DNA from: Candidatus Poribacteria bacterium
Lineage (GTDB): Bacteria > Poribacteria > WGA-4E > UBA9662
NCBI GenBank assembly: GCA_036339735.1
Contig: JAYZAL010000070.1
Span: 1-49,436 of the forward strand
DNA length: 49,436 nucleotides
Direction: 5' to 3'
In this document: positions 11,897 through 19,109 of the stretch, piece by piece
Layout: each line of letters begins with the position of its first letter
How positions within the stretch are numbered: the first letter of the stretch is position 1
Program-made: the position numbers and the translations under genes
Notes under the pieces: generated by a model
What the model was told of the DNA's origin: nothing
The model's input: the letters and a program-made list of their open reading frames with translations, nothing else
Databases searched by the model: none

Positions 11897-13510
11897 ATGA
11901 GAAAGTTCGTATTGATACTGGCAATTTATTATTCTTCTCTAACAAATTATGCTGAAAGTGAATATTGGAATCAGTTTCGTGGACCAAATGGAGACGGTAA
12001 ATCGAAAGCTCAAAACTTACCCCTCGAGTTTACAGAAAGCCAGAATGTGCGATGGAAAATACCGATTCACGGTCAAGGTTGGTCTTCACCTGTGGTCTGG
12101 GGAAAACAAATTTGGTTGACTACTGCTAGGAAAGATGGGACTGAGTTATTTGCAGTCTGCGTTGATTTGGATAGTGGTAAAATGATCCACGATATAAAAG
12201 TCTTCGATGTAGTAGAACCACAATCAGAACATCCGGGTTTGAACAGTCATGCCTCACCCACCCCAATCATTGAAAAAGGCAGAATCTATGTTCACTTTGG
12301 TACTTATGGTACTGCTTGCTTAGATACTCAGACGGGAAGGAAATTGTGGGAGCGTCGTGATTTGAACTGTGATCATCGGGTTCGGCCAGCCTCCTCACCG
12401 ATTATTGATGATGGATTAATATTCTTAGTTTATGATGGAGTTGATGTCCAGTTTATCACAGCTTTGGACAAGGAAAGTGGTCAAACCCGTTGGTTAGAAA
12501 ATCGAAAAGTGAAAAACGACTTAGCTACAGTTCTGACGACCGGTGGTCTCAAAGATGTTGAAGAAACCTTAAAAGAGAAACCGAACGATAACAGAAAATC
12601 CTATGCAACTCCTACTATTATTGAACATAATGGCCAAAAGCTGTTGATTAGCCCCGCAGCTGAAGCCACTTTTGCCTATGATCCTCAAACCGGGAAAGAG
12701 TTATGGAGAGTACGTCATCAAGGATGGGGTTGGAATGTAGCTTGTCGACCCATTTATAGTAGCGGTTTGGTGTTTTTCACCACTGGAGTAGCAAAAATAT
12801 TAGTGGCTGTTGATCCTTCTGGAAGTGGAGATGTTACCAACACTCATGTAGTTTGGAGTCATCGAAGAGGAAGTCCTGAAATACCATCGCCTATAATTAA
12901 GGATAATCTGATTTTCTTCACCAATGAAGGAGGTGTTGTGTCTTGTCTAGAAGCTAAGACAGGAAATGAAGTCTGGAAAGGGCGTATTCATGGTAACCAC
13001 TGGGCATCTCCTGTGTATGCGGATCAGAAAATTTATTTCTTCAATAAGGACGGGAAAGTTTCGGTTATTTCTGCGGGGAAAGAGTTTAAGTTATTAGCAG
13101 AAAATGAATTGAATGCCGGTTTTATCGCTTCACCAGCTGTAGTTAACGAATCAATGATCCTTCGGTCAGAAACACACTTGTATCATCTTGCCAACGGTTT
13201 CTCGCGAGTTATCCTCGAAGATGAAAACTTGCGAAGAACTAAGGGCAAACAAGCTAAAAGAATCCATAAAAAGCTAGAAAAAAAGAAGAATGATAGATCG
13301 GGAAAAGAAAATAAGAAAAAAGAAAAAAGTGCCAAGGATCTGGGCACTATTCAACTAGAAGTTGAAGGCTGGACCAACTATTTTCGTACTTCTTCCGCGC
13401 AACAAATCCGTCAGGCTATTGAGAGTGAAAAATTTCAAAATTTGGCCCCGAAAATTCAGAAGGAAATTTTAAATCAGGCCCAGAAGTTCTTATCTCAAAA
13501 AGATGAATAA
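11897..13510 (+). CDS. PQQ-like beta-propeller repeat protein (BamB-like fold) with a basic C-terminal extension
   Basis: Signal peptide, WNQFRGPNGDG, GWSSPVV, ASPTP, SYATP, WASPV repeats; aggaga RBS. Confidence 0.9.
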   Translation: MRKFVLILAIYYSSLTNYAESEYWNQFRGPNGDGKSKAQNLPLEFTESQNVRWKIPIHGQGWSSPVVWGKQIWLTTARKDGTELFAVCVDLDSGKMIHDIKVFDVVEPQSEHPGLNSHASPTPIIEKGRIYVHFGTYGTACLDTQTGRKLWERRDLNCDHRVRPASSPIIDDGLIFLVYDGVDVQFITALDKESGQTRWLENRKVKNDLATVLTTGGLKDVEETLKEKPNDNRKSYATPTIIEHNGQKLLISPAAEATFAYDPQTGKELWRVRHQGWGWNVACRPIYSSGLVFFTTGVAKILVAVDPSGSGDVTNTHVVWSHRRGSPEIPSPIIKDNLIFFTNEGGVVSCLEAKTGNEVWKGRIHGNHWASPVYADQKIYFFNKDGKVSVISAGKEFKLLAENELNAGFIASPAVVNESMILRSETHLYHLANGFSRVILEDENLRRTKGKQAKRIHKKLEKKKNDRSGKENKKKEKSAKDLGTIQLEVEGWTNYFRTSSAQQIRQAIESEKFQNLAPKIQKEILNQAQKFLSQKDE

Positions 13511-13610
13511 CTCCCAACTTTATATTTACTCAAACTTGAAATTGGGAATTATTCATCTTTTTAGTTCGAATACTATAGGACTAATGTATTAGTGAGGTTA
13601 TTGAAACTAG

Positions 13611-14603
13611 ATGCAAAGATATTTTTCTAAGTTCTTATCCAAGTTTTTCTTTTTGTCATTGATAATAATGGTACAACCAAATTTCTGTTCTGCAGAAAAT
13701 GAAACTCTTGTCGAAGTTAATGGACTCTTGAAGGTCAAAGGTAATCGCATTGTCAACCAGCATGGCAATCCTATTTCATTAGCTGGAAACAGCTTATTTT
13801 GGTCCAATGATGGCTGGGGTGGAGAACGTTATTACTCGTCTCAAGTTGTTTCTTGGCTCAAAACAGATTGGAACACCTCAATCATTCGAGCGGCCATGGG
13901 TGTAGAAGAGCCTGGTGGATACTTAAGTAATCGGGGTACCAATCAACAACGTGTTAAAACTATTATTGAATCGGCAATTGATTTAGGCATTTACGTGATA
14001 ATTGATTGGCACTCGCATCATGCCGAAGATTACACCGATGAAGCAATCGAGTTTTTCCAAGAAATGGCGATAACTTATGGTCATAGCAAAAATGTGATCT
14101 ACGAAATATACAACGAGCCGTTGGATGTCTCCTGGCCAGAAACTGTTAAGCCTTATGCCTTGAAGGTTGTTTCGGCCATCCGCTCGATTGATCCTGATAA
14201 TTTGATCATTGTCGGTAGCCCAGAATGGTCGCAGCGGGTGGATCTAGTAGCCGAAGATCCAATTACTAGCTTTGAAAATATTGCTTATTCACTTCATTTT
14301 TATACCGTTCACCATCAAAAATGGCTTCGAGATCGTGCATCAATAGCTTTGAAAAGAGGGATTGCTTTGTTTGTAACTGAATGGGGTTCAATTGGGTATC
14401 AGACAGTGGATACAGAAACAGATCTATGGATGTCATGGTGTGCGAAGAATATGATTAGCCACTGCAATTGGGCCGTAAACGATAAGAAAGAGGAATGGTC
14501 GATTTTAGTGCCCGGAGCAAGTACAAGTGGTCATTGGACGAACGATGAGCTGACAAGGTCTGGTCAATTAGCCAAAAATATCATTAAGAATTGGAAGAAA
14601 TAG
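13611..14603 (+). CDS. Glycoside hydrolase family 5 endoglucanase (GH5_2-like)
   Basis: IIRAAMGVE, IIDWHSH, YEIYNEP (acid/base), LHFY, FVTEWG (nucleophile); signal peptide. Confidence 0.92.
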   Translation: MQRYFSKFLSKFFFLSLIIMVQPNFCSAENETLVEVNGLLKVKGNRIVNQHGNPISLAGNSLFWSNDGWGGERYYSSQVVSWLKTDWNTSIIRAAMGVEEPGGYLSNRGTNQQRVKTIIESAIDLGIYVIIDWHSHHAEDYTDEAIEFFQEMAITYGHSKNVIYEIYNEPLDVSWPETVKPYALKVVSAIRSIDPDNLIIVGSPEWSQRVDLVAEDPITSFENIAYSLHFYTVHHQKWLRDRASIALKRGIALFVTEWGSIGYQTVDTETDLWMSWCAKNMISHCNWAVNDKKEEWSILVPGASTSGHWTNDELTRSGQLAKNIIKNWKK

Positions 14604-14688
14604 GTTGGCCTTCAATATTTAAAATGCTAAGCAAATGGAAAAGGTAATTTGCTTAGCATTTTTAATCAAATTCATTGAAGTCGAGATT

Positions 14689-15573
14689 ATGATTACAAGA
14701 ATGAGTCAGGTATTTGTATCTTTATTAGTATTTTCAATTGATACTCAATGCGGGAACTTGCCAGCTATCCTCCATGAAAATGAACTAAAAGTAAGCCAGG
14801 GTAAAAAATTGGGAAAAAGATCAATCTGAAATGATTTTGATTCCAAGTGGCTCGTTTGACATGGTTGATTACTTTAATGATGGTGGAAAGGATCGAGTAA
14901 CTGTCGGTTAGTTTTATCAGTTTGTCGAGTAAAGTGGATATGACTATCCAATTGATTACTGGAATTTAGTGTTTGAGATATTACCGGGAGACAGTTACCC
15001 AACGGCGTATGTAAACTGGAATGACGCTACGACTTATGCTGAATGGGCCGGGAAGCGATTGCCAACCGAAGTTGAATGGAGGTACCCTGCTCGAGGTGGA
15101 TTGATAGGCCGTTATCCATGGAGAAATGAAATATACCGACGGTGCAAGAGTATAACTTTGATGATAAGAATGCAAACTCAATTTTGAGGGTACTTCACTA
15201 AGAATTTGATTGAACTGATGTAGAATTGGATGATGGATATGGTACTGCTACCCCAGTAGGAAGTTTTTAACCGAATGTTTTTGGATTACAGGATATGGCT
15301 GGTAACGTACGGAAATGATATACGGACTATAATCGAGAAAATTATTATAATATTTTACCAGTCAAGAATCCAAAAGGGCCAGATAACGGTTCAAGAAAAG
15401 TATTCCGCAGTAAGTCTCAGTATGATACTGCAACCACGCTACATGTAGCAACTCGCCTTATCGAAAATTCTCCAACGGATAGGAAAGGTGAGTTAAGCTT
15501 TACCAGTGGTCTTGGGTTTAGATTTGTATCAAATGAAGAACAACTTACTTACTCAAACCCGAACCAAAGATAA
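14689..15573 (+). pseudogene. FGE-sulfatase (formylglycine-generating-enzyme/SUMF1 domain) pseudogene
   Basis: MILIPSGSFDM...VTVG*FYQFVE*...VNWNDATTYAEWAGKRLPTEVEWRYPARGG...YPW / PVGSF*PNVFGLQDMAGNVRK*...NPKGP...GFRFV. Stops at 14909, 14930, 15268 and 15316, plus frameshifts. Confidence 0.88.
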
Positions 15574-15597
15574 ATCGTGTATCTAACCCGTTTTTAG

Positions 15598-16310
15598 AAA
15601 AACCAAGTTCACAACTCATTTTCCGTACACTATTGAACGGAAGTAGCTCAGTTGATAATTGGTTGCGAAGCCTATGAACACACTATCTAAGTGCTACCAC
15701 AATCATGCCAACACAGGAAATACGACCTTATTCTCATTTCTACCACCCATATTATAATTTCTCACCGAAATAAATCTTTGATAGCACCTGATAAGACTCA
15801 TTTCATACGACGGTTTTGAAAAATATTTGAAAAGATAAGTCTCAAAACGTACATTCTTGGTATCTTCAATTTCTCCTTGAAGTGTATCTCATAATATGAA
15901 GCGCCTAGCTCACCAGTAGCTAGGCGCTCATCACCCCCTTTGACCATTTCTTAACCATAAACTAATCAAGCGACATTCTTTTTTTGCAACTAGATCCAGA
16001 TTGAAAAGGTATAAAATCAGCGTTGCATATTTTACTCCTTGTCTATGCAACCGGCATAACCTATTCTTATATCATGCATGCCGGGCTGGGTAGCTGTAGC
16101 ACTCATCACCTACCCAGCTTTCACATTTTATAAAAGAGTGCCTAGCCCACAACTAGGCACTTTCAATGCTTATTCTGACAAAATTAAATTATATCTCTAG
16201 TTTATTTAATTGGCTCAATTAGCCCCTCTAGCAGATCCATTAGTTCCCTGAAGCAATACTATGGTATACATACCCACTTGATAATTAGCCGGTTACAAGT
16301 AAGGGTAAAC
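15598..16310. ncRNA. Candidate large structured non-coding RNA (strand unresolved)
   Basis: No ORF >=60 aa. Eight hairpins (15601-15664, 15864-15882, 15901-15927, 16022-16051, 16051-16084, 16085-16118, 16137-16161, 16271-16307), four of them nested inside five long-range stems. Confidence 0.55.
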
Positions 16311-16595
16311 AAAGTTTAGTTTGCTGTATATATGGACTGATGGATATACTTCGCAATTACGGATCTTAGAACAAAAAAATCCATCTCACAGGGATCTGAT
16401 CATATCTATCGACGCCCGCGATATTCTACTACCTCGAGGCTGAATCTTATCTGACCAAGGAAGTCTCTTGTTTTGATGTTCAGTCGTAGAATGGGGCATT
16501 ATGTGCAATCTGGGGATAATAGTGAATTTTAACTTACTGGTAAAGTCAGTATGGCCGGCTCCTTTGAGTATTGACCACGAAAATCTTGGAGCGTA

Positions 16596-16994
16596 TTGTG
16601 GAACACCTCCTCATACAACTATCTATGTCCATCATCGTTGTGTTTGAAGCGCGAGCTTTATCATCTGAAAATACTCCGGGTATCCCTATCGCTTCGAGGG
16701 TCGATTATATTACTGGGGGATGCGATTTCTAGTGAGGAATACGCAGTAGGGAAATTCCAGTTTTTCTTTGAACAAGCGACCGGTTTTTTACTGCCAATTT
16801 TCAGCGAGACTCGAAAAGAAAATGACTGCTGTATCTTTGTAGGTATAGGCGACGCTATGAAAAGATCGCAGCTAAGATTCGACACAACTGATTTCGGTAC
16901 TGAAAACCTTCGTGTGGTTGTTGGTGAATCAGTGATTATGATTGCAGATGGTCGCACGTCTGTTGGAGAAATACTTCGCGCCGGAATGAACTGA
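16596..16994 (+). pseudogene. Possible degraded gene fragment; C-terminus weakly resembles the GspE/PilB ATPase C-terminus
   Basis: Ends IADGRTSVGEILRA, similar to the VxxGxTSxEEVLR tail. Upstream frames are interrupted. Weak evidence. Confidence 0.2.
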
Positions 16995-17180
16995 GATTGA
17001 TCTTGATAATATAATAAATTGGTGGAAAGCTTGCGTTTCTTACTAATGACGACACCATATAATTCGATTTTTATCACAGTTCCAGATGTTAAAAAGTTTG
17101 AAAAACAACAGGTTAAATTTAATTGGTATGATAATCATAATTATCAAATCAAAATTCTAATTTTTTAGGAGACCCAAGCC

Positions 17181-17980
17181 CTGAATTATATATTTATTCT
17201 TTTTTTACTTCCCTGATAATTGGTTGTGCTATTAATGGAGAAGAAGTTAATACAATTATCAAGGAACAGATTGAAACTCAACCATTATCCGAATTTAACA
17301 CTAGTATATTGAGATGGCAAACCAATAAGTTGAGTCACTACCAATTTGATTTTAGGTGGATTTGCTTTTGTCCGCCTGATTATATTTCGCCTGTTACTAT
17401 CACGGTGGAAGATAGTGTAATCAGCCATGTCATGTATAGTGAAACACAAATTCAGGTTCAGGAAGATAAACTGAGTCGCTATAAAACAATTGATGATTTG
17501 TTCAGTTTCGTCCAAGATGCCTACAGCCAAAATGCTCATCAGATTTCCATAGACTACGATCCCCACCTTGGGTACCCAATTAGGGGGTCGGTGGATTACG
17601 TAAAAATGATAGCAGACGAAGAAAAAGGCTTCGAGATTAAGAATTTCATGGAGTTGAAATCTAACGAAGATGGGGCTTCGCTAATAAAAAGATTACCGAT
17701 AAATGAGATGTCATTACAAATTAAAGAGAATTTCCCACCTTTGATTAATATTAGAGTAGAGGGGTACTTGCCCGATAGCCGTACATCGTTTCATCGGGTT
17801 AGGCAGCAGCGAGAAGGTAATTTGGTAGTTGTTGAACTAACCACAAGACGTCCTAGAAATGAGTTTTGTGCTGAAGTGATTACAGAAATATCAAAAAGCA
17901 TTCAGCTGAAAGGTAATTTTGCCATAGGCCAAGATTATACATTGATTATTAATGATAAAGAAACGAATTTTAGTCTTTAG
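17181..17980 (+). CDS. DUF6174-like lipoprotein with a second beta-rich domain; 5' end frameshifted in a T7 tract
   Basis: RWQTNKLSHYQFDFRWICFCP...TIDDLF...YDPHLGYP...IADEE. The main frame is open upstream of 17309 through SLIIGCA (lipobox), but the RBS (aggaga 17167) plus CTG 17181 is out of frame. Confidence 0.65.
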
Positions 17981-18370
17981 TTGAAGTTCATCTCGTTTAT
18001 CAGTCTCGAATGTTTTGATAGAAACGGGACTGAGTAGTTATTACTAGGTTCAACGACGAAGATAGTAGTATCGGAAGTGTTTAAGCTTAAAAATACTAAT
18101 GTTCAGGTGTAGTCTATTGTAGTTGATGATAGCTGGAGCCAATTGTAATCGTAGAATATTGACGATTATGGGAAGTTTATATTATCTGAATATGCAGTCA
18201 TTGAGTTTGATACCAAAATAAAAAGAATCAGATTGGAAACAATATTTCATCTTCAATTTTGAATTCTGAGAGTAAATATGAAGAGCCAGAAAAGCTACCA
18301 AATTTCCATCCATAATATATAACAAAACCGATTTACCCAATCGGCTCTACACCTCTCATAAGAGTGATAA

Positions 18371-18937
18371 ATGTACTTTTGGACTTTACATACCCTTCTT
18401 AACAATGTCTGGGATGAAGAAACGATTCTGATAAGGATAAACCGTTTCGAGAAACAGTGTGCCCCGGTGGTTTCGGCTGATCCTTGGTGTGCGACGGCCA
18501 GGAATTGGGAAGATGATCCGGCAGATTTTGCTACGGTTCTCAATCGGCTGCGTCATTTTGTAGAGTCTCGGCGGTCTAAGATCCAAGATATCGTAAACGA
18601 TTATGCAAATGAAGAAAATCTTTTAGCCACGAATCAAAAACAGGATAAATTCAGTAAATCTACTGCGAATTACAAAAAAATCGTATTGATGAAATAGGAG
18701 GAAAAAGCAGTATTCAGCAAGAAATTGAAGGTTGGATCAACTGTTTTCGTATCGCTTCTGAGCAAAAAATAGATAAAGCTATTCAATTCCGAAAGTTACA
18801 GATTCTATCCTCAGAAATTAAAGAAGGAAAGTTGAATCGAGCAGAGGAATTAAAATTAAATTTGGTAACTGAAAGAGATAAAAAAATATTCAGCGAAATA
18901 ACTAGTATCATTCACATCTGTTTCTTTTCTTTTTAGT
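18371..18937 (+). pseudogene. Frameshifted gene remnant; first part resembles a CotH-kinase C-terminal helical region
   Basis: YFWTLHTLLNNVWDEETILIRINRFEKQCAPVVSADP...FATVLNRLRHFVESRR resembles CotH C-termini. Coding-like sequence continues in another frame (QKNRIDEIGG...FFSF*). Confidence 0.35.
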
Positions 18938-19109
18938 GAAAAGTTAATGACTATAAATTCCCATACCACTAAATAGATAGCGCAGTGCAGTTGATTAATA
19001 ATTACTTTTTAGACGGTTAGTTAATCACTAAATAAGGGGAATAAAAATAGATTAGATTTTTGGTAAAGAATTAGATTAACAACGAAACTCTGACTTCCCT
19101 CAATTAGTT

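Follow-up and report, generated by a model that had tools for sequence, protein, structure and literature searches.

A paralogous small-RNA gene family with CU-rich apical loops, possibly masking ribosome-binding sites, in one genus of Candidatus Poribacteria

Two described families of small RNAs (sRNAs) come closest to the element reported here. LhrC1-5 of Listeria monocytogenes, in the part of the report drawn on here, comprises five copies of ~100 nt that consist of stem-loops plus a terminator and all depend on one regulator, and these carry three redundant CU-rich motifs (UCCC; in loop A, in a single strand and in the terminator loop) which prevent translation by binding a G-rich site in front of the start codon (PMC4132741). 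The alpha-r14/NfeR1 family of the alpha-proteobacteria, as far as it is outlined in the sections used of its source, presents three hairpins, each with the anti-Shine-Dalgarno (anti-SD) motif CCUCCUCCC, acting as redundant seeds that occlude the ribosome-binding site (RBS) (PMC10746234). The present element lies on a DNA stretch of 49,436 nucleotides, referred to as a whole as the window, which corresponds to positions 1 to 49,436 of contig JAYZAL010000070.1 from a Candidatus Poribacteria bacterium (assembly GCA_036339735.1; 4.32 Mb, 107 contigs, 92% complete, about 39% GC; hereafter G000). Positions 16018-16167 of its plus strand, with upstream boxes from 15940, are one gene of a paralogous family of putative sRNA genes. 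A preliminary description, made from the letters alone, had proposed a translation regulator at this place, and its reading as a plus-strand RNA masking ribosome-binding sites with anti-SD words in its loops fits what was found, namely a conserved, structured and multicopy unit, a loop keeping (A/U)CUCCUU in 10 of 15 copies, and SD sites of the AAGGAG type in the genome.

The first sign of paralogues came from a BLAST search of 14601-19100 against G000, in which 15920-16117 had relatives on three other contigs. By nhmmer and a covariance model, the window copy (15940-16167, plus strand) is one of six paralogous copies in this genome. The covariance model, R1, was built from Box 2 to stem-loop 2 (SL2) of the plan given below (105 positions, 17 pairs) and matched six times in G000, eight times in G002 and once in G001 at E<1e-4, these being three genomes of one genus, each 91-92% complete. 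Thus, a total of 15 sense copies was obtained, each scoring at least 47 bits, and three further matches in the search of G001 and G002 were marginal (E 0.04-0.08). No copy was detected with R1 in three other genomes of the same family, nor among 100 further genomes of the class (a search for which the filters tighten beyond 40 genomes), and the matches in a BLAST search of 60 relatives were confined to the genus, bar one 23-nt chance match. A pattern scan of 185,579 species genomes returned 25 loci, three of which hold the family, all of them in one Candidatus Poribacteria bacterium record; the other 22 were discarded as chance matches of the pattern, with no family RNA. The scan of metagenomes, with a pattern that is blind to the C44-type subfamily, gave seven loci, every one near-identical to known copies. 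Among the genomes searched, the family is restricted to one genus of uncultured marine bacteria. Moreover, cmscan with Rfam 15 gave no match at the gathering score in the window or in three other loci, and on 15700-16300 no family appeared at E<1, the best one having an E of 1.1 and not being LhrC.

The copies follow one plan, which from 5' to 3' reads Box 1, a variable spacer of ~36 nt, Box 2, stem-loop 1 (SL1), a linker of variable length and SL2, followed in most copies by a last hairpin, AGUGCCUAG...CUAGGCACUUUUU. The family consensus is TTGAC(C/T)ATTTCTTAACCATAAA for Box 1, GUUGCAUA-loop-UAUGCAAC for SL1 and CUGGGUAG...CUACCCAG for SL2. In the window copy, all parts of which are on the plus strand, Box 1 (TTGACCATTTCTTAACCATAAA, 15940-15961) is the family's most conserved sequence and is identical in the sister-species orthologue; it is presumably a promoter or a regulator site. 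Box 2 (TTGAAAAGGTATAAAAT, 16001-16017) presents a -10-like TATAAA/TAAAAT 4-5 nt before SL1 and, with a mean majority fraction of 0.84 and 8 of 21 columns invariant in the 15 copies, would presumably be the core promoter. SL1 (16022-16051) is formed by an 8-bp stem (GUUGCAUA/UAUGCAAC) and a 14-nt loop, UUUUACUCCUUGUC at 16030-16043 (DNA TTTTACTCCTTGTC), which is the proposed seed, complementary to AAGGAGU(AAAA). SL1b (16052-16083), a hairpin missed in the preliminary description, has a stem of 6-7 bp (CGGCAU/AUGCCG) and a 20-nt C/U-rich loop; it is an insertion specific to the orthologue group of the window copy, and its loop reads CCUCUCC in the G001 copy. SL2 (16084-16119) pairs GCUGGGUAG with CUACCCAGC around the loop GUAGCACUCAUCA, which is identical in the orthologue and variable among paralogues, and the last hairpin with its tail UUCAAU (16135-16170; hairpin at 16135-16163, 11 bp, GAGUGCCUAGC/GCUAGGCACUU) is presumably a terminator. 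Other than SL1b, these hairpins and their loops had been placed correctly beforehand, as had two upstream ones at 15864-15882 and 15900-15928.

Box 1 was also searched for as a wider regulon site, which gave 1 one-mismatch and 12 two-mismatch matches outside the family, compared to 1 and 11 for a reversed-pattern control, and thus no indication of a regulon. In a check by eye for sigma-54 and sigma-70 readings of the boxes, the spacing did not fit. A Box 1 match including TTGACC, with 2 mismatches in the 16-mer core, is found at G000:C77:31985 (plus strand, TTGACCATTTCTTCACCATCAAA), and no family RNA follows it. Furthermore, Box 1-like sequence (TTCTTGACTGTAAATCGATTAAG) without a recognisable RNA part occurs after the terminator at L001 ~2780-2830 (after the C44 copy) and at L010 1732-1780, and has the appearance of a decayed second tandem copy, comparable to the C21a/C21b pair.

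The fold of 16018-16170 has a z of -5.7, with none of 200 dinucleotide shuffles being as stable. In an alignment of 13 copies, 97.7% of the 221 cells are paired and both sides have changed in 5 of the 17 pairs, a degree of pairing that none of 500 shuffles equals, slid partners being paired in 26-41%. Two compensatory pairs and six wobble cells are found in SL1, and three and 13, respectively, in SL2. Moreover, type II and type III copies (the loop types given below) present a U-run (CCCAGUUUUU, CCCAGUAUUUUUUU) directly 3' of SL2, which is therefore the terminator of those shorter members, and C44-type copies have UUUUUUU after the last hairpin. On the minus strand, the 19 G.U/U.G cells would turn into A.C/C.A mismatches; by this and by the positions of the U-runs, the RNA is on the plus strand.

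It is extremely improbable, in our judgement, that the minus strand is the functional one, with AAGGAG and an ATG in the SL1 hairpin starting a small peptide or leader whose RBS is masked by the stem. In its favour, the minus-strand sequence of SL1 is AAGGAGTAAAATATG, where SD and start are well spaced; the window copy's last hairpin has its better T-run on that strand; and one stem mismatch of G001 (C.A) becomes G.U. However, the 19 wobble cells turn into mismatches, type III copies have no AAGGAG, and the open reading frame (ORF) that the ATG would open differs in sequence between copies and runs to 3 codons in the window copy, 10 codons in its orthologue and 13 in C44. The minus-strand readings offered beforehand are not supported, given these wobble cells and the U-runs on the plus strand. 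Of the tiny ORFs noted, MQR* becomes one of 10 codons in the orthologue and differs among paralogues, and the 23-codon TTG ORF at 15793-15864 is equally long in the orthologue, but with 9 of 23 residues different and its SD only 3 nt from the start. A Pfam search of the minus-strand ORF 15798-15947 gave no match.

Three types of SL1 loop were distinguished. Type I, UUUUACUCCUUGUC (ACUCCUU), appears in 8 of the 15 copies, type II, GUGUCUCCUUUAUG, in three (UCUCCUU in two of them, CUUCUU in one) and type III, (C/U)GGAU(U/C)ACC, in the remaining four. CUCC words are unpaired in 15 of 15 cases in the 14 folded copies, the 15th copy holding an N and having been left unfolded. Comparisons between copies were made outside the loop, to avoid defining a group by the very feature being counted. 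There, ACUCCUU copies share 51-77% identity between paralogue lineages (for instance, copy G0_C70 has identities of 0.71 to C44, 0.74 to C19 and 0.77 to C21b), they are no closer to each other than to type II and III copies, and they are split over two different SL2 architectures; thus, the loop was held while the rest drifted. The concern raised at the outset, that loops might vary freely among homologues on conserved stems, is borne out insofar as SL1 loops are of three types, and not insofar as ACUCCUU has been kept despite the divergence around it. In the C44/C21a subfamily, CU-rich words are found in three loops, which in the C21a copy are ACUCCUU, ACUCCUCUU and ACUCCCUU, with CUCC in all three.

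Within the window itself, CTCC is present in 2 of 6 hairpin loops, compared to 0.11 expected from the genome frequency (Poisson P ~0.005, post hoc), and ACTCCTT is not enriched across the whole window (4 found, 7.1 expected). The observation is real through conservation among homologues and not through motif frequency in the window. In addition, ctcacc, ctcatcacc and cccac, which had been counted among the anti-SD loop motifs, are not anti-SD words.

The loops could instead be protein-recognition sites rather than pairing seeds, on RNAs that mainly bind a protein as its sponge or substrate, which we consider unlikely. Similar loops repeated on several hairpins are, in the part of PMC4132741 drawn on, a hallmark of sponges too, and GGA is present in the type III SL1 loops and, in two copies, also in SL2. 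However, GGA loops occur in just 4 of 15 copies, the common loop being CU-rich. Moreover, CsrA (PF02599) had no matches in G000, G001 and G002 in a search that finds it in three positive control genomes, an absence that is short of proof in genomes 91-92% complete, and which speaks against the CsrB-type sponge that had been offered as an alternative.

SD usage in G000 was assessed on 2,648 long ORFs, the starts of which were taken naively as the first ATG, so that the actual figures are probably higher. A GGAG peak is seen at -9 to -15 (16.5% vs. 4.3% inside ORFs), and AAGGAG before the first ATG reaches 3.7% vs. 0.3%. The commonest SD heptamers are AAGGAGA (41) and AAGGAGU (38), each exactly complementary to one loop type, II and I, respectively, and AAGGAGG appears only 9 times. 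The 16S 3' end read in a genus member is canonical (GGATCACCTCCTTTTT, tail GGAUCACCUCCUUUUU), G000 having no assembled 16S.

With these words at hand, the family may also be viewed as a set that mimics the 16S 3' tail, type III by copying UGGAUCACCU and types I and II by copying CUCCUU(U), and that serves as decoys for whatever reads the tail, be it SD sites at large, an enzyme that processes or modifies it, or a toxin. This appears very unlikely. The SL1 loop of G000:C21:23180 (L002 ~2681, minus strand) and its orthologue (L065) hold TGGATCACCT, identical in 10 of 10 positions to the tail of the genus member (L054), and CTCCTT and CTCCTTT of the tail also recur in the loops of types I and II. 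However, this match is post hoc; the 10-mer has 11 occurrences in G000, where 6.9 are expected; in the other type III lineage the loop is CGGAUUACC (CGGATTACC), with only four consecutive nucleotides in common with the tail; and type I is one C short of the CCUCC core. The 16S look-alike pointed out in the preliminary description, ATCACCCCCTTT at 15930-15941, does share 11 of 12 positions with ATCACCTCCTTT, but at chance level, with 1 match in the 49-kb window vs. 0.46 expected and at least one in 41 of 100 shuffles; at its 3' end it runs into the first letters of Box 1. The suggested echo of helix 45 plus anti-SD tail at 15901-15941 is not supported, the tail being at chance level and reading TTCACAATACTTTTT in the orthologue; a mimic would call for hairpin and AUCACCUCCUUU-like tail to be conserved together, which is not the case here. 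In that orthologue, the loop of the hairpin 15900-15928, the stretch 15927-15941 and the terminator loop are all different.

We see about an even chance that the copies constitute a new family of sibling sRNAs masking ribosome-binding sites, LhrC- and alpha-r14-like in mechanism and not by descent. Each gene, under its own conserved upstream boxes, would give an RNA of 70-150 nt, beginning at SL1 or shortly before it and terminated by a hairpin plus U-run. The apical loop of SL1, and in one subfamily two further loops likewise, would expose (A/U)CUCCUU, which would pair in trans with ribosome-binding sites of the AAGGAG(U/A) kind and block the initiation of translation, different loops on different siblings covering different sets of mRNAs. 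The ACUCCUU loop has the look of a conserved accessible seed as known from sRNAs in general, with its CUCC unpaired, AAGGAGU as a common SD complement and its targets predicted only. As to a promoter of its own and a discrete, terminated transcript, the picture is mixed: terminator hairpins with U-runs are present in most copies and the boxes are conserved, but the metatranscriptome contigs gave no transcript ends, and no sigma-70-like promoter was called at the element. Candidate targets were scored with RNAduplex, pairing the SL1 loop with -30..+12 of 25,132 candidate starts, 4,688 of which passed a purine-word prefilter, and the best predicted ones include Hsp20, two GFO/IDH/MocA oxidoreductases, SufB, adenylosuccinate lyase and ABC ATPases.

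A further possibility, which we rate as quite unlikely, is that the siblings together constitute a graded series of 16S-tail mimics: type I would match AAGGAGU sites, type II AAGGAGA sites, and type III, with UGGAUCACCU (identical to the tail in 10 of 10 positions), would copy the portion immediately upstream of the CCUCC core. If so, siblings switched on individually through their shared boxes could retune which SD classes reach the ribosome, or could instead lure away a factor recognising the 16S 3' end.

Several observations weigh against RBS masking. As four of the 15 SL1 loops are without a CU-rich word and one type II copy reads CUUCUU, anti-SD pairing is not the function of all members, and type III loops cannot act on SD cores. 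The ten best predicted targets with plausible spacing share no theme and belong to unrelated Pfam families, and any CUCC loop would score well against SD sites. The number of independent lineages is small, the 15 copies coming from three close genomes, so that the counts are those of related sequences. Neither box is a convincing sigma-70 promoter, the scan having called none at the element. Moreover, the U-run after the last hairpin, strong in other copies, is weak on the plus strand of the window copy (UUUCAAU), where the terminator scan calls the minus strand only. Hfq was not found in G000, although the mechanism does not require it. The metatranscriptome contigs reach a depth of only 2-5.4 and are scattered over coding and non-coding parts.

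The copies could also be structured non-coding repeats without a role in trans, either remnants of a once mobile element or terminator/insulator cassettes accumulating in gene-poor stretches. We regard this as improbable without being far-fetched. In its favour, the metatranscriptome runs gave no evidence of expression, and two of the orthologue pairs (C44 and C21c) lie within stretches that are 82-100% identical throughout, the flanks being as conserved as the units. The family is multicopy, and all six G000 copies sit in stretches of 2-5 kb free of ORFs of at least 70-80 aa (L001 752-3563; L002 1208-2996 and 5775-11234; L003 1-2009; window 14604-17308), the window copy also adjoining a decayed FGE-sulfatase gene. 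However, all G000 copies have a 1:1 orthologue at the same place in the sister species, the tandem pair included, and the age of the paralogue lineages, evident from their divergence (59-77% identity), argues against a recent spread. Both stems have been kept by compensatory changes, the boxes and the loop are conserved although a bare terminator would not need them, and terminal inverted repeats were not noticed in the alignments. Three of the five orthologue pairs (the window copy, C21a and C19) are more conserved than their flanks. For the window copy, the identity to its orthologue is about 80% overall in 15940-15999, rises to 88-95% in 16000-16159 and drops to 35-45% in 16160-16239; falling right after the last hairpin, it places the end of the unit there.

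In the metatranscriptome check, four runs were compared with 13500-18500, one of which gave no contig. The Logan contigs of the others are located on the GH5 gene, on the FGE-sulfatase pseudogene, at 15939-16070 and at 16169-16516, with neither strand nor ends readable. The one at 15939-16070 includes Box 1 and, at 92% identity, stems from a related strain; it could be DNA carry-over. These contigs demonstrate neither transcription nor silence of the element. At 16169-16516, just after the element, two contigs of one run with 99% identity and a depth of 2.7-3.5 may represent transcription or DNA carry-over.

Such RNA-library coverage downstream, together with a structured RNA and a terminator-like end, would be consistent with the element being a leader that acts in cis on a gene downstream, in the manner of a riboswitch or attenuator, which we hold to be highly unlikely. 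No conserved gene follows the element, as the 132-aa ORF at 16596-16994 has no Pfam match and similarity to the orthologous locus is lost beyond ~16550; moreover, tandem copies succeed each other directly, and there is no Rfam match.

Regarding the setting of the window copy, the GH5 cellulase gene (13611-14603) is the upstream neighbour of the ~2 kb stretch without long ORFs that holds the element. A remnant of an FGE-sulfatase (SUMF1-like) gene extends over 14635-15570 on the plus strand, with a fragment at 14969-15187 matching PF03781 (E 9.4e-17) over just positions 89-139 of the 255 in the profile. The ORFs in this region have only 57-72 aa, and in the aligned stretch of the sister-species locus L061, where the DNA is still 70-90% identical, no ORF exceeds 87 aa; the gene seems to be broken in both species. 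Directly after the GH5 gene, a hairpin at 14623-14733 on the minus strand is picked up weakly by the family model (21.8 bits, E 0.0027); it is probably the GH5 terminator, its likeness to the family being confined to the SL2 part. Elsewhere in G000, the ORF-poor stretches at the C44 and C21c copies maintain their 82-100% identity to the sister species over >1 kb, and may hold further non-coding genes.

A hairpin pair upstream of the element is a separate unit (~15827-15930, plus strand), kept in the sister species, single-copy in G000 and absent upstream of the G001 copy. Its first hairpin (15864-15882) has the stem CTTCAA/TTGAAG and the loop UUUCUCC and is 100% identical in the sister-species orthologue, and its second (15900-15928) has 11 bp and CACC in the loop, terminator-like without a clear U-run. 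The stem of the latter resembles that of the family's last hairpin (GCGCCTAGC vs. GTGCCTAG). The orthologue retains this stem, one pair having changed in a compensatory way (C-G to U-A), and has a different loop. The fold of 15830-15940 has a z of -4.9, again with none of 200 dinucleotide shuffles as stable, and a sigma-70-like site, TTGAAA-17-TACATT at 15827-15855, lies upstream of the first hairpin and is kept in the orthologue. The pair may constitute another small RNA, unrelated to the family and ~70 nt long, whose loop is of a similar kind. That it is a diverged family member could not be shown, as R1 gives 15836-15931 just 7 bits (E 1.9).

Compared with known systems, the family shares with CsrB/RsmZ sponges a short loop motif repeated on several hairpins, but 11 of 15 copies have a motif other than GGA, and CsrA was not found in the three genomes. 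The sRNAs of the RsaE/RoxS type are single-copy conserved genes with a UCCC/CCCC motif. The likeness to these and to other Firmicutes sRNAs with C-rich loops consists in C-rich loop words that pair with the SD in low-GC bacteria, whereas homology to the present family was not detected with Rfam. Such sRNAs are mentioned in PMC4132741. With the 'cuckoo' RNAs alpha-r14/NfeR1/CcsR, as far as the source sections cover them, the family has in common the repeated copies and the anti-SD motifs in unpaired hairpin regions. However, CCUCCUCCC is absent from the loops found here (UUUUACUCCUUGUC, GUAGCACUCAUCA and others), there is no Rfam match, and the stems are conserved and the loops differ, opposite to the cuckoo RNAs, where according to the same sections the stems differ and the motif is kept. 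Moreover, the DUF1127 gene (PF06568), an associate of the cuckoo RNA CcsR, had no matches in G000 (92% complete).

The resemblance to LhrC, within what its source was drawn on for, lies in the multiple copies, in the stem-loops plus terminator and in the CU-rich loops, and the dependence of all LhrC copies on one regulator may have its match in the boxes shared here. On the other hand, the present family has no sequence or structure homology to LhrC detectable with Rfam, belongs to another phylum, carries (A/U)CUCCUU and not UCCC, and has a non-CU loop in a quarter of its copies; the window copy holds a single CUCC in place of a set of UCCC motifs, three CU-rich loops being found only in the C44/C21a subfamily. 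Therefore, the likeness to LhrC and alpha-r14 is one of mechanism only, membership failing on motif, homology and the DUF1127 association. A narrow literature search, judged by title and abstract, found no regulatory RNA for Poribacteria. The present work contributes an sRNA family backed by covariation, together with a clear candidate for the seed and a covariance model, and offers studies of metatranscriptomes of these uncultured marine bacteria a concrete object to search for. It is a new sRNA family with a known kind of mechanism and no new principle, and would represent an independent case, outside Firmicutes and Proteobacteria, of the recurrent design of sibling sRNAs with anti-SD loops.

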